Source: Candidatus Levyibacteriota bacterium
Lineage (GTDB): Bacteria > Patescibacteriota > Microgenomatia > Levybacterales > UBA12049
Reading direction: 5' to 3'
Length of the DNA stretch: 51,628 nt
Assembly: GCA_016186645.1 (NCBI GenBank)
Contig: JACPLF010000007.1
Location: 192,651 to 244,278, forward strand
Position numbers and translations under genes: made by a program. Below the pieces are notes generated by a model that saw only the letters and a program-made list of their open reading frames with translations, did not search any database and was not told where the DNA came from. Positions 14,983 through 50,151 of the stretch are shown piece after piece; positions within the stretch are counted from its first letter, which is position 1; every line of letters begins with the position of its first letter.

Positions 14983-15083
14983 TTAATTACTCTAATTTCT
15001 AATTGACCTAATCAAATTCCAAATCCCAATTGGTGATTGGGAATTCTTTAGAAATTAGGCTAATTAGATCAATTAGGTTAATT
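14983..15083. repeat. Inverted short-period (7-9 nt) tandem arrays filling the ruvA-ruvB spacer
   Basis: Left arm of CTAATT units, right arm of AATTAG units at 9-nt spacing (15053, 15062, 15071). Perfect IR ctaatttctaa (14992-15002)/ttagaaattag (15048-15058); inner IR cccaat/attggg. Confidence 0.7.
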
Positions 15084-15659
15084 TTATTTCCCAAGGTATT
15101 TTAGCGCCAATTTAATTGTTTCTGTAATTTTTTGCCCTTTTTTCTTAACAGCTCTTATCGCATCATGAATTTCTTTGCTCGTAAATCCAAAGCCTTTCAA
15201 TGCAGCTACTGCTTCTTCGCTTCCAGACATATCATCTCCGCTTAAATCAAGATCCCCTATTCCGCCAAATTTATTTTTTAACTCAATTATTATTTTCTGC
15301 GCGTTTTTTCGTCCCAGTCTTGGAACAGAAGTAAAAAAATCAACGTCTCCTTTTGTAATCGCAGACATTATTTCGCCTCTATTGCCAACTGAAAAAATAT
15401 GCATTGCAGTCTTGGGGCCTATACCTGAAACTCCAATTAGATTCTCGAAAAGTTTCAAATCCAAAGCTTCCAGAAAACCAAAAAGGGAAATATTGTCTTC
15501 TCTGACATGAGTATAAATGAAAAGTTCCAGTAGTTCCCCTTTAATCGCTTTTGACAAAACGTCGATTGCAGCCAAAACTTTGTATCCAACTCCTTTAACA
15601 TCAAGAATAATAGAATTTGCTTCTTTGAAAAATACAACTCCGCTCAAATGCCCTATCAT
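15084..15659 (-). CDS. ruvA: Holliday junction DNA-binding protein RuvA
   Basis: MIGHLSG...GVGY...THVRED...LFGF...VSGIGPKTA...VPRLGRKNAQKIIIELK. Start placed at ATG 15659. Confidence 0.95.
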   Translation of the reverse strand: MIGHLSGVVFFKEANSIILDVKGVGYKVLAAIDVLSKAIKGELLELFIYTHVREDNISLFGFLEALDLKLFENLIGVSGIGPKTAMHIFSVGNRGEIMSAITKGDVDFFTSVPRLGRKNAQKIIIELKNKFGGIGDLDLSGDDMSGSEEAVAALKGFGFTSKEIHDAIRAVKKKGQKITETIKLALKYLGK

Positions 15660-15717
15660 TTCGTCTTGATTATAGCACAAGGATTGTCTATTATAGATAC
15701 TGAGCGTAGCCGAATGT

Positions 15718-16158
15718 ATGAATTTTGATCCAAAACAATTTGACAAATCATCATTTACTAATGATTCTTATGTAAAAAGAGTGGAAAAACCATGGGGGTA
15801 TGAACTCCACTGGGTAGCGGAAAATCTTCCCTACATGGGCAAGATTGAACATGTAAATGCAGGCGCTCGCTTATCTCTTCAAATTCATGATCAAAAAAGA
15901 GAAAGCTTCTTCCTTATGAGCGGCCGGGGAAAAATTATTTGGGACAATAATAAAGGAGAACTTGTTGAAACAGAAATGGAAAAAGGCAAAGGATATACTT
16001 GCGCTACAGGACAAAGACACAGGCTGGTTGGAATTACGGATTGCGATATTATTGAGGTATCAACACCTGAAATGGGCACAACCTATAGGCTTGAAGACGA
16101 TTACAAACGTCCAGACGAAACCCCACAACAGCGCAAAAAAGAACGCGGAGAAGTCTAA
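15718..16158 (+). CDS. Cupin-domain protein (mannose-6-phosphate isomerase type II C-terminal-like)
   Basis: EKPWG, RLSLQIH, HRL, EVSTPE, RLEDDY. Confidence 0.75.
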   Translation: MNFDPKQFDKSSFTNDSYVKRVEKPWGYELHWVAENLPYMGKIEHVNAGARLSLQIHDQKRESFFLMSGRGKIIWDNNKGELVETEMEKGKGYTCATGQRHRLVGITDCDIIEVSTPEMGTTYRLEDDYKRPDETPQQRKKERGEV

Positions 16159-48500: not shown

Positions 48501-48548
48501 GGTGGAGCTTTTGATATGGGACAAAAGACCGTAAAGGAAGAAAAATAA
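45543..48548 (+). CDS. Large hypothetical helical protein (true start possibly ATG 45615)
   Basis: 1001-aa ORF, Glu/Arg-rich, with a hydrophobic C-terminal segment; no family recognised. Confidence 0.75.
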   Translation: MKEILNQKLANLAQTPYSKGGDIFMAEPGHNETGSEKLVENQTPQKGEQIKKSLENVARIGEQEKETRKQQPLTKEERVLRAREAWEHYYGEKWQSLSPEERQEAEGNIKEDLPPIAGGADPLSVVAFLTDPTLLNIVREVNQEVGRIGAGNPLDMDFVTEQLRRVQNLQDQGRIDRGLGLRLIGELQGFAAESAQARARQDRAQTVAFREIHDISQRSISHEQKERLIVEQLRTLSPAEPFQTELIDSIVDYDKALEYLVNRIISEPLDAETSRYQLSFYGGINFSLIRERMKVRYEGLAREAEDPQRTPQHDELLENSRKKEGLFHIFEYMRTGAELTHNMNAKVVTGDIEQFIGVARELEIMHLQVLQRSELVSTVVRLYEQELKRVIARDGKITTKNYEEVTGTILDEKGSPFDERGRPIGKKPGSVEKRLYRLNKERPAEDRLEEWQLKWAFHSGRNILNITLRAAELIAQSKEIGYRSYPQESASRIIDPLNLTGQRFGIAEQRGGLHLYEMTEGIFNRDRGNFGWLKSNIKTLMGGDRRQFELRGIFEITGVWSGWRQNNIIQIQDPDNTGRTISLEEFTKEKGGQMSSPAGLRTVFLENGELKENFVHSLGVVLRLGAIMPSEKDKEPMLAAKREVRAAIWRRVARDNPLAMVDFLRGMRFEDGKEPLPNINVRLEQLDNIMFTTATRFEDKKIWAGGKTNKNVLSGEYKEAEVWDSLREKLVLAHEKRMANIKTGNFAQLIDVFEVNALSVEERDIFNRIRDLGLGVARDMAEIRFPSDPFMNDVLFEAVNYGEAGAEFFRRRLGGDIPSMYKAGGSFTNLMDNPGGIPNDKAQEVLHEMERALESPQGQEAGQNNIAAPFEAYLQFVRAGGNVENVPELINFLINENSFVNSIRKIRKAPNSWAQFFAGPEAPAFDAFQIGSQLDRALLAGTIRRGKGKGEAVWTDLYERFRKKFKTSPLWLLLRFLIDATPIFLIGGAFDMGQKTVKEEK

Positions 48549-48555
48549 GACCTGA

Positions 48556-50151
48556 TTAGAATTTAAAGATATTTCTTGCTACTCCCATGAGGCCTTGTCT
48601 CTCATTCATTTTTGGCGTATGATAGAAGGAAGCTACAGCTTTACCACTAGCAACAGGTACTCCCGCTCCTGCTCCGAGGGCTTTTAGCGTTGCTCCTGTA
48701 TCAATTTTCGGAGCTTTGAGAGCGGATTTGAGCATGTTTACCACATTTGGAGTCATTAGAATAATTCCAAGACCAATTAGGGATCCAATTAAGCTTGTAT
48801 CTCCGGGGTTTCCGATCAAAGGAGGAACAAACTGCTGCCCAGGTGTTCCCTTAGTGAATGCATCCATAAAAACTTTTCCCAGCATAAACATTCCAATTAC
48901 TGCAGGAAATGCAGCTAAGTTTGCGATGATATCCCTAAGCCATCCGCTTAGACTAATCGGACTTCCCGGGATAATGCCGCCAATAATCCAAAACGGCGCC
49001 AAAACAACATCAAGAAGAATATGAACATAAGCTATGATAAGCGTAAACCAAAGCCTAAACAAAGCAGTTAGAAGCGCAATAAAGATAACTATATAAGCAA
49101 TAGCATAAGGAATAGCCCATCGAAGTCCCGCTTCAACCAGAACGGCCGCAGCTCCACCCTTTATAGCTTCTTGGACACCAGGTACGCTAAATCCAGCGAC
49201 TTTAAAACCTTCCGTAAAGAAAGCTACAAAGAAGCCAGCGCCAACACTTATGGCATGAATTAATATATTCATAAAACTAAAGTCAACAAGACCCAGACCA
49301 AGAAGGTTTGTGACAGCGCCTACTATGGAATTTCCAGAATGCCATGTAATTAACGCAATGCTTCCAAAGCCTTGCACTCCAAGAGGTGATACTCCTTGCA
49401 TAGTCGTCGGATTAAGATTGTTCAGATTAACACCCGGAATTCCACTGAAGATTCCATATATCAGATAAATAAATACCCACATCAGATCAATCAAAAATCC
49501 TGCGATGGCGAAGGAAAAAGTGACGACCAGAATGCCGATGATTATTTTGGGAATCTGGTTTTGGATTGACATAACAGTCCGCGGATCAATTTTTACACGA
49601 AGCATAATGGCAAGGCCAATAACTACAAAAATTATGACAAGAAAAAGATAGACAATATTTCTAAAAGCAGACCAAATACCAATAAGAGGGGTAAGACTTT
49701 GAAAACCTGTTCCTCCTGCGCTTTGCGCATAGGCTTTCTTATTTATGCCGAAGTTTGAAGCAAGGTCTTTAAAATAATCAGAGGTGTGAAGGGGAGAGGT
49801 ATAAAGTGCTCCAATCATATTGCCCATGAAGCCAATTGCTCCCCCCGACTTCGCCAAGGCTTCGTCGGGCAAGCCCGCTTTTGGCAAAAATCCAATTTTG
49901 CCGCTTGCTGAATCAATTCCAAGACAGGATTGTTTGGGATTTGTCGGGTCAACTCCCGCAAGCTGGCAGGTGAGAGCAGACATTACTTCAATCATTACAT
50001 TTTGCGTCCAGTTGTGAAGATTATTCGGCACATCAGGGTTGGTGTTTGGGGCAGGGGTTTGGGCGAATGCAGGAGAAATGAGAGGTGAGAAATGAGAGGT
50101 GAGAAATAGGAAGAGAATTAGAATTAAAATTCCGGACAGGATTTTCTTCAT
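48556..50151 (-). CDS. VirB6/TrbL-like polytopic membrane protein
   Basis: Signal peptide, WSAFRNIVY, GLAIMLRVKIDPRTVMSIQNQIPKIIIG..VVTFSFAIAGFLIDL, several TM helices, FVPPLIG; lies near the pilin/VirB4 locus. Confidence 0.6.
   Translation of the reverse strand: MKKILSGILILILFLFLTSHFSPLISPAFAQTPAPNTNPDVPNNLHNWTQNVMIEVMSALTCQLAGVDPTNPKQSCLGIDSASGKIGFLPKAGLPDEALAKSGGAIGFMGNMIGALYTSPLHTSDYFKDLASNFGINKKAYAQSAGGTGFQSLTPLIGIWSAFRNIVYLFLVIIFVVIGLAIMLRVKIDPRTVMSIQNQIPKIIIGILVVTFSFAIAGFLIDLMWVFIYLIYGIFSGIPGVNLNNLNPTTMQGVSPLGVQGFGSIALITWHSGNSIVGAVTNLLGLGLVDFSFMNILIHAISVGAGFFVAFFTEGFKVAGFSVPGVQEAIKGGAAAVLVEAGLRWAIPYAIAYIVIFIALLTALFRLWFTLIIAYVHILLDVVLAPFWIIGGIIPGSPISLSGWLRDIIANLAAFPAVIGMFMLGKVFMDAFTKGTPGQQFVPPLIGNPGDTSLIGSLIGLGIILMTPNVVNMLKSALKAPKIDTGATLKALGAGAGVPVASGKAVASFYHTPKMNERQGLMGVARNIFKF

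Follow-up and report, generated by a model that had tools for sequence, protein, structure and literature searches.

What places tandem arrays of seven-nucleotide units inside the essential genes of a bacterium? This question is raised by a stretch of 51,628 nucleotides (hereafter the window), which is segment C5:192651-244278 of a metagenome-assembled genome of 880 kb (11 contigs, 36% GC, 95% complete). The relatives of its ValS protein place the window in Candidatus Levybacteria (Patescibacteria, or Candidate Phyla Radiation), and the source is a groundwater bacterium. The best ValS matches are Levybacteria/Levyibacteriota genomes with 63-81% identity. An initial annotation of the window described pervasive short arrays and suggested that they are the footprints of a cassette with a four-helix-bundle gene. 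The reading that we prefer is that the arrays are this lineage's form of heptanucleotide tandem repeats and also the repeat component of small selfish cassettes carrying a PF05635 gene, with copying in a 7-nt register and with binding of the arrays by the PF05635 protein. In our judgment this reading has about an even chance of being right.

The periodicity itself is a property of the DNA. A region was counted as an array when, in a run of 21 consecutive positions, 17 or more matched the base k positions away (lag k). Lags of 4-30 were counted, and units of 1-3 nt were filtered out beforehand. Genome-wide, 140 arrays are found at lag 7, compared with about 0.6 in dinucleotide-preserving block shuffles. 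The harmonic lags 14 and 21 give 87 and 23 arrays. Lag 8 has 16 arrays and lag 9 has 15, and every other lag between 4 and 30 yields 0-10 (0, 3 and 9 at lags 4, 5 and 6). The period of 7-9 nt given by the initial annotation is therefore mainly a period of 7, with periods 8 and 9 as a minority of only about 10%. The comparison with codon-shuffled controls that the annotation had proposed gives a clear result: 92 lag-7 arrays lie inside open reading frames (ORFs), whereas codon shuffling leaves 0.6 and a shuffle among synonymous codons, which keeps the protein, leaves 6.2. The window alone has three stringent lag-7 arrays and three lag-14 arrays, where dinucleotide shuffles have none, and the ValS loci of 80 genomes contain 89 lag-7 arrays and 1-12 at other lags. 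Because the shuffle controls stay far below the observed counts, the signal is a DNA-level period of 7 and does not stem from composition, codon usage or protein periodicity.

The arrays are short, and their vocabulary is small. Near-perfect arrays of 2 to 5.5 units, counted in half-unit steps, number 27, 41, 18, 24, 12, 40, 14 and 6. Their lengths peak at 4.5 units, none is longer than 5.5 units, and the distribution is unlike a slippage-type decay curve. The unit sequence was said to differ between loci. Many units do occur, but the 140 arrays draw on only 49 canonical types, compared with 93 (minimum 80) for GC-matched random 7-mers. The commonest is AAGTATT (12 times), and AAAATTC, AAATCTT and AAATCTC are used 8-9 times each. 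Arrays with the same unit at different loci have no common flanks, and their similarity is limited to the 28-35 nt of the array. Unit usage in the source genome overlaps with that of the relatives G006 and G008 by 0.22-0.33, where 0.40-0.49 is expected (p <= 0.0015). About two thirds of the arrays (93 of 140, with ORFs crudely called) lie in ORFs. Intergenic DNA makes up 9% of the genome yet holds a quarter of the arrays, and strong inverted pairing is found for 15 of 35 intergenic arrays versus 7 of 92 in-gene arrays. No family in an Rfam scan overlaps any array.

The arrays are linked to a gene family by the structure of the cassettes. PF05635, the 23S rRNA intervening sequence (IVS) protein family, has been recognised as Avd-like (PMC10053308). 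One full cassette is present in the window on the minus strand (44002-44442), where a gene for an Avd-like four-helix-bundle protein (44034-44405, Pfam E 2.8e-19) stands between inverted octamer arrays (44002-44030 and 44409-44442). The source genome has nine PF05635 copies, and 7-8 of the nine are tightly bracketed by inverted arrays. The bracketing units are AAGTATT, AAGAATT/AAGATTT, AGTAAAT, GAGAAAT/GAAAGAT, CGAAATY and TTATTAT, together with an octamer type and a nonamer type. When cassettes of other Patescibacteria are included, nearly all of 64 distinct cassettes are bracketed by complementary arrays. The median local score of arm complementarity is 14, compared with 7 for mismatched arms, and 58% of the cassettes exceed the 95th percentile. 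Arm similarity increases with protein identity (Mantel p ~0.001). The periods 7, 8 and 9 are represented 24:4:3 among cassette arms and 140:16:15 among genomic arrays, and where the arms contain a recognisable array, its median length is about 3.6 units. The examined cassettes lie between protein-coding genes.

Two further features of cassette placement were observed. Cassettes of different arm types adjoin homologous type IV secretion system (T4SS)-pilin-like genes in four genomes (window 43596-45235, L158 in G001, L131/L084 in G006 and L145 in G008), and this neighbourhood is either a preferred insertion area or the site of an old cassette that has diverged in both its arms and its protein. 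PF05635 genes also form tandem clusters, of two or three cassettes each, at G033:C2:134705-137436, G059:C69:1301-3681 and G001:C49:261-1330.

Presence/absence polymorphism at orthologous sites is found for cassettes and for intergenic pairs. The cassette at C5:37372-37758 occupies about 490 nt with its arms, whereas the flanking genes in G004 are 11-15 nt apart with no array between them, so the arms arrived or left together with the gene. At the site of the C11:112149 cassette, whose arms are of AAGTATT type, only the downstream arm (AATACTT) is present in G008, directly beside the same start codon, and G007 has nothing. The C3:24909 site is occupied in G005 by an orthologous cassette whose arms have diverged, and in G008 by an inverted pair that has no gene and a different unit type. 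Directly 3' of the valS stop codon, two Daviesbacteria have a full PF05635 cassette. The source genome has a gene-less pair of opposed arrays there (19947-20009; TRF, the Tandem Repeats Finder), with arms of AAAGTTA type and AAATTCA type at 19947-19978 and 19977-20009, abutting that stop codon. At this position, neither a heptamer pair nor a cassette occurs in any of the eight Levybacteria relatives that were compared.

The junction of ruvA with a 350-aa gene is the most varied of these sites. The window has a compound hairpin here (14974-15083; TRF) in which CTAATT-type arms (14974-15004 and 15053-15083) flank a central palindrome. Different elements are found in four relatives, namely a different heptamer pair (L006), an octamer pair of the type seen in the window cassette (L013), a nonamer array (L003) and a GC-rich hairpin (L001). 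The junction is empty in L004, L007 and L008, and five of the eight genomes thus carry five different elements. Near the cassette of the window, a gene-less octamer pair, ATTGTTAA ... TTTAGCAA, overlaps the start of nadE (42882-42966; fold z -2.6; Pfam NAD_synthase) and has the octamer units and orientation of the cassette arms 1.1 kb away. Since one and the same site may hold a complete cassette in one species and a gene-less pair, one arm or nothing in another, the intergenic arrays are best read as members of the cassette family that are reduced or lack the gene and that insert at gene junctions. As a separate observation, L001 has unrelated GC-rich hairpin elements, such as cccgaaacaagttcgggat, in its valS-tpr spacer (L001:11447-11540) and at its ruvA junction (L001:20563-20644). 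Since they occupy both heptamer-pair junctions, several repeat classes appear to be attracted to the same junctions.

The initial annotation had called for a comparison of arrays with four-helix-bundle gene counts across genomes, and the outcome is positive. Solitary-array density was determined in the ~20-kb ValS loci of 80 species and set against PF05635 genes per Mb. The two are correlated with a Spearman rho of 0.58 (p 2e-8, 80 genomes, not phylogeny-corrected), and rho is 0.57 among 71 Patescibacteria. Pooled densities per 100 kb are 1.8 arrays in genomes with zero PF05635 genes, 4.1 in those with fewer than 3 per Mb and 18.3 in those with at least 3 per Mb. Only 2 of the 89 arrays counted in the ValS loci are cassette arms. 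Within Levybacteria, the density per 100 kb is 3 arrays in two genomes without a PF05635 match and 11-27 in two genomes that have 8-13 of the genes. The interpretation of the arrays as footprints of the four-helix-bundle cassette is thus borne out for intergenic arrays by the bracketing, the site series and this correlation, while the link to in-gene arrays consists only of a shared unit vocabulary and architecture.

The arrays inside genes behave differently from insertions. The RuvC array (18557-18586, minus strand) consists of 4.3 copies of GCAAAGT/GCAAAAT with period 7 and 91% matches (TRF, Pfam RuvC), and it encodes a native beta-hairpin between GWGIVE and YGCAET. The hairpin segment is equal in length across eight species, barring nested 8-aa inserts in L013 and L003 and one additional residue in L008. 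A uniform array is present in six species, each with its own unit: GCAAAGT/GCAAAAT in the source genome and AATGCAA, AATTCGA (x4.5), AATTCAA, AATTCAA/AATTAAA and AATTCAG in the others. The array of L003 is degenerate, and L007 has none. The nested insert in the hairpin array is a GC-rich sequence of about 24 nt that encodes HFAARRAE in L013 (L013:13379-13870) and TLRRRSGQ in L003 (L003:13500-13991). It represents another class of in-frame mini-element, placed on top of the heptamer array.

Three array regions are found in valS, all on the minus strand. Five AAGTATT-type units (20107-20140) encode the helix segment YIILNTLYLIL. The annotation had placed this array just before the conserved LLHPFMPF helix, and orthologue alignment agrees: the helix before LLHPFMPF has a constant length in all orthologues, so the array is a replacement and not an insertion. 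One subclade encodes the helix by five TACTTAA-type units, and in L001 all units are TTCTTAA, which changes two tyrosines to phenylalanine together. The second array (20338-20370; AAGTATC/AAGTAGT, period 14, 100% matches) encodes NVSSSKYQVVSI in the variable linker after KLWNMxRF, where different species have AAGTATN, AACTCAA, AATTCAA (NSKFKIQN), AATTCGA or AAATCAA arrays. The third region, in the zinc-knuckle loop (20889-20949), is composed of TCGGAGT x2.7 (20889-20907) and TCTGATTTCCCACT x2.3 (20918-20949). This is a true insertion, as most orthologues have no insert; other inserts at the same site occur in L070, L006, L008 and L033, that of L008 being a GC-rich sequence, PERSEGSRDSSAAPQNDK, similar to the RuvC inserts. 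In the window protein the insertion lies between the two zinc-knuckle halves (residues ~411-432), with KCQ-KSE in place of the orthologues' KCxKC, so the first pair seems to have lost its second cysteine.

Array sites were also compared across the genome. Among 36 in-ORF arrays whose orthologue has no array, protein length is unaltered at 12 sites and stays within one residue at 15; 10 sites show a net gain (+3 aa or more) and 10 a net loss (-2 aa or beyond). A change of +7 or +14 aa is never seen (0 of 36), and simple in-frame expansion by 21 nt (three units) is accordingly rejected. At 22 further sites the orthologue carries an array too, in most cases built from another unit. Where the units differ, each genome favours its own common unit (124 vs 41 in the source genome and 61 vs 30 in relatives), and a site-wise sign count of 23 vs 13 makes this preference suggestive only. 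Since length is mostly neutral and units change in step between species, the in-gene arrays, as judged from these alignments, behave as rewritten segments under concerted evolution, and not as plain insertions or 21-nt expansions. The alignments that the annotation had proposed as a check therefore show a unit that differs by species in a segment whose length is mostly kept in RuvC and ValS. Essential enzymes with an array-encoded structural segment are RuvC, ValS, RecR and RsmH. At G000 C5:8436-8468, in a protein with alignments to stretches of the ValS-centred loci, distant Patescibacteria orthologues (L022, L027 and L054, labelled Saccharibacteria and Doudnabacteria) also have period-7 DNA, with the differing units ELNVKCQRLNVKF, SLNLKSKILNLNF and KLKAESKKLKAEF. 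Because orthologues this far diverged have period-7 DNA at one site, some array sites are either ancient or recurrent hot spots.

A mechanism can be outlined for the preferred reading, in which arrays and cassettes share one copying process. In a cassette, a PF05635 gene would be flanked by two arrays in inverted orientation, built from a unit of 7 nt (rarely 8 or 9) that is specific to that cassette. Copying in a 7-nt register, by strand slippage or realignment or by annealing of array-bearing single strands, would write the genome's current unit types into tolerant DNA. Such DNA would include loops, linkers and leaders of essential genes, where selection would retain stop-free, length-neutral versions. 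The same process would homogenise the units within an array, and between species the unit would drift. The likely trans factor, binding the arrays, would be the PF05635 protein, probably as a pentamer. A profile of PF05635 proteins matches PDB entries 2rld and 2gsc (XCC0516), whereas a single-sequence PDB search with the protein of the window gave no match. The pentamer and its binding to arrays are suggested because these homologous structures have five chains each and solitary arrays peak at 4.5 units. The title of the 2gsc paper, as it stands in the reference list of PMC10053308, names an assembly of five four-helix bundles. A stronger version, in which each PF05635 paralogue (likely a pentamer) recognises its own array of about five units and promotes its copying to new sites, with tolerant segments of essential genes overwritten at unchanged length, as the trans factor of a reverse-transcriptase-free system for rewriting DNA, strikes us as unlikely. 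If true, such rewriting would explain the heptanucleotide excess of prokaryotes as well as the nucleic-acid role of Avd in diversity-generating retroelements (DGRs), and it would give a function to one of the largest families of unknown function.

Several observations weigh against the preferred reading. No donor-recipient pair or copying event was observed. Reverse transcriptase (PF00078), the known partner of Avd, has zero matches in the 95%-complete genome. Array units of the source genome are no closer to its own cassette arms (score 0.45) than to G006 arms (0.47), and G008 arrays resemble G006 arms more than G008's own. Specificity of solitary arrays for the cassette arms of their own genome is ruled out by these scores; the unit vocabulary is common to the clade, and the cassette catalogues are incomplete. 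The abundant units AAATCTC and AAAATTC have no resident cassette in the source genome. The strict array test is passed by only 31 of 128 arms, which are more degenerate than solitary arrays. No array indels or length variants are visible in population data from four public groundwater runs, which consist of Logan contigs only. Genomes without a PF05635 match keep 2-3 arrays per 100 kb, about 30 times the chance level, and the cross-genome correlation carries no phylogenetic correction. A single templated process, as the initial annotation had it, can at most be inferred when reverse transcriptase is missing, copying has not been seen and arrays persist without PF05635.

Those residual arrays are also an argument for heptamer-biased replication slippage alone, the strongest of the alternatives and still a doubtful one. 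In this explanation the polymerase slips by about 7 nt, arrays arise and homogenise locally, and cassettes are bystanders; the correlation with PF05635 would then reflect a shared permissiveness of the genome or the availability of targets, with cassettes inserting into arrays or surviving beside them. A heptamer excess is reported for most prokaryotes with slippage as its explanation (in passages of PMC4679880 and PMC4692102), homogenisation within an array is expected from slippage or unequal exchange, and the units fit the arms of another genome no worse than those of their own. Slippage does not readily account for lengths that peak at 4.5 units and stop at 5.5 without decay, for 49 unit types where 93 are expected from random local 7-mers, for in-gene arrays that are never +21 or +42 nt relative to array-less orthologues, for the empty G004 site without any array, or for the small excess at other periods above 3 nt (0, 3 and 9 arrays at lags 4-6, with 1-3 nt filtered out). 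Mismatch-repair loss does not help. MutS (PF00488) is absent from all nine Levybacteria genomes searched (G000, G001, G003-G008 and G013), control genomes being positive, and this lineage seems to lack canonical mismatch repair. The nine include array-poor as well as array-rich genomes; the absence of MutS from all of them means that repair loss cannot explain differences in array load, and it is rejected as the cause. The annotation's verdict that ordinary slippage did not create the arrays is thus favoured, though not proven, by the specificity for period 7, the ceiling of about 5.5 units, the small genome-specific vocabulary, the near-zero net length and the MutS pattern.

Selection by the host could also maintain periodic sequences, which would be binding sites or RNA structures shaped by point mutation. 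Examples are a cold-shock or S1-type single-strand binder, RNase III stems and translational coupling at junctions. Many arrays do lie at gene junctions, starts and ends, the ruvA junction has a strong hairpin, arrays recur at the same sites over deep divergences, and, according to the discussion in PMC4679880, each unit of a heptamer repeat is bound by one CspB protein. We nevertheless consider this origin quite improbable, as two thirds of the arrays fall within the ORFs of housekeeping genes that are unrelated to one another, close relatives have nothing at the same junction and several of the pairs fail to fold. More than 100 near-perfect 30-nt arrays, or an in-step change of units, are very unlikely to arise by point mutation. 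The AT-rich genome (36% GC) and its assembly from a metagenome bring to mind an artefact of composition, assembly or chance, the likelihood of which is negligible: the dinucleotide, codon and synonymous shuffles yield 0.6-6 arrays versus 92-140 observed, arrays are found at orthologous sites in independent assemblies, and contigs from four runs reproduce the window unchanged.

These contigs from the four runs contain the window without differences, with the arrays in frame in the housekeeping genes for RuvC and ValS. At 14767-15033, 18505-18771 and 19840-20106 of the window, contig depth rises 10-40-fold and unitigs end at arrays. The depth spikes indicate that many other contigs of the community carry these array sequences too. 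In practice, arrays fragment metagenome assemblies and create species-specific peptide segments in otherwise conserved proteins.

The remaining features of the window add detail to this picture. Pfam supports valS, ruvC, ruvA, rnpA and nadE, a membrane protein of the Wzy_C/O-antigen-ligase family and several T4SS-pilin-like proteins. The arrays reported in the initial annotation are all present within a few bases of the positions given, as determined by TRF and direct reading, with one exception that lies below threshold. This is the degenerate TTCTCAT-type array between the rnpA stop and the yidD start (33339-33372, minus strand), which is under both detection thresholds. Its assignment to the rnpA/yidD junction is correct, because yidD is a 63-aa ORF at 33153-33344 on the minus strand. 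The degenerate array also supplies the C-terminal extension MKMRSEK of RnpA. Three arrays are found in the Wzy_C/O-antigen-ligase-family gene on the minus strand: a heptamer array that encodes a loop (30749-30774; TRF, Pfam, orthologue comparison), an AAGATTT-type array that the annotation had missed (31096-31124; TRF) and an AAGTATT-type array (31243-31279) that encodes SIKYKVLSMK in a loop of similar orthologue length. The divergent intergenic region that precedes a 1001-aa gene has two arrays of period 8, AGATTTGA and AAATCAAA (45349-45418; TRF). A perfect array of 2.5 copies of a 14-nt unit, GAGAAAT/GAGAGGT (50073-50107, minus strand, 100% matches), encodes residues ~16-27 in the N-terminal hydrophobic leader of a 531-aa protein, which was earlier called VirB6-like and has no match in a Pfam scan.

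The opposed arrays do not all form hairpins. At the ruvA junction, the predicted RNA fold of 14975-15090 has an energy of -31.6 kcal/mol and a z of -4.9, so this inverted pair is a strong hairpin. The second intergenic pair named in the annotation is unfolded (19940-20015, z 0.05), and its arms are of different units. The supposed inverted pair in the Cys-rich part of valS (20888-20951) does comprise two arrays, with a weak fold (20880-20960, z -1.1). A hairpin reading for every inverted pair is therefore rejected.

Heptamers have been described as the most abundant class of long simple sequence repeats (LSSRs) in most prokaryotes (Mrazek 2007, as cited in passages of PMC4679880 and PMC4692102), and the same passages attribute to Mrazek 2007 the suggestion that 7 nt corresponds to the DNA segment held by the polymerase. 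The excess has been reported since 2007 for prokaryotes and since about 1990 for cyanobacteria, and the polymerase-slippage idea is the sole explanation offered in these parts of the literature. The question can now be tested with a candidate PF05635 partner, a natural series of sites and essential enzymes in which array units have been replaced wholesale. A repeat process at the DNA level can repeatedly rewrite parts of core proteins without lethality.

Among known systems, the closest are the short tandemly repeated repetitive (STRR) sequences and LSSRs, for which GGGAATC in Xanthomonas, GGGGA(C/T)T in Nostoc and TAACTGA in Beggiatoaceae are examples given in passages of PMC4679880 and PMC4692102. 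In both cases exact 7-nt tandem units are far over-represented, several unit families exist per genome, some inverted pairs are formed, and length and sequence vary at the same locus between close relatives. In contrast to the STRR/LSSR class, which is predominantly intergenic, two thirds of the Levybacteria arrays are in ORFs, essential genes included. They stop at about five units, whereas up to 26-43 copies are reported elsewhere, their units are AT-rich, and coding segments are replaced at constant length. The published STRR/LSSR work consulted reports, in the parts available, no link to a gene family, unlike the link to PF05635 described here.

The cassettes resemble the 23S rRNA IVS, of which the PF05635 ORF (S23p) of Coxiella burnetii, a selfish element with complementary arms, is an example (PMC4990558). 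Both have a four-helix-bundle ORF inside complementary arms. Unlike the IVS, which sits in a 23S rRNA helix and is excised by RNase III, the Levybacteria cassettes lie between or beside protein genes, their arms are heptamer arrays, and gene-less copies are scattered in the genome. With DGRs they share an Avd-like protein and the rewriting of short coding segments in surface-exposed regions, at constant length and with the frame kept. A DGR is ruled out because the source genome has no reverse transcriptase; moreover, the targets are housekeeping genes, the arrays are tandem rather than a template/variable repeat pair, and no adenine-specific pattern was seen in an analysis that was not aimed at one.

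In-frame selfish repeats in essential genes are also known from the Rickettsia palindromic elements (RPEs), which are conserved palindromes of 100-150 bp that add residues to proteins. RPEs and the Levybacteria arrays are alike in that repeated DNA is tolerated in frame in conserved genes, in surface loops and in a small-genome bacterium. The difference from RPEs and from miniature inverted-repeat transposable elements is that the copies in Levybacteria share only a tandem array of 28-35 nt, which is usually non-palindromic in genes and usually length-neutral. No link between PF05635 and heptamer arrays was found in the literature searched. In summary, the arrays belong to the known, unexplained class of heptanucleotide repeats, and their link to a cassette and the in-frame rewriting of essential genes are new relative to that literature.

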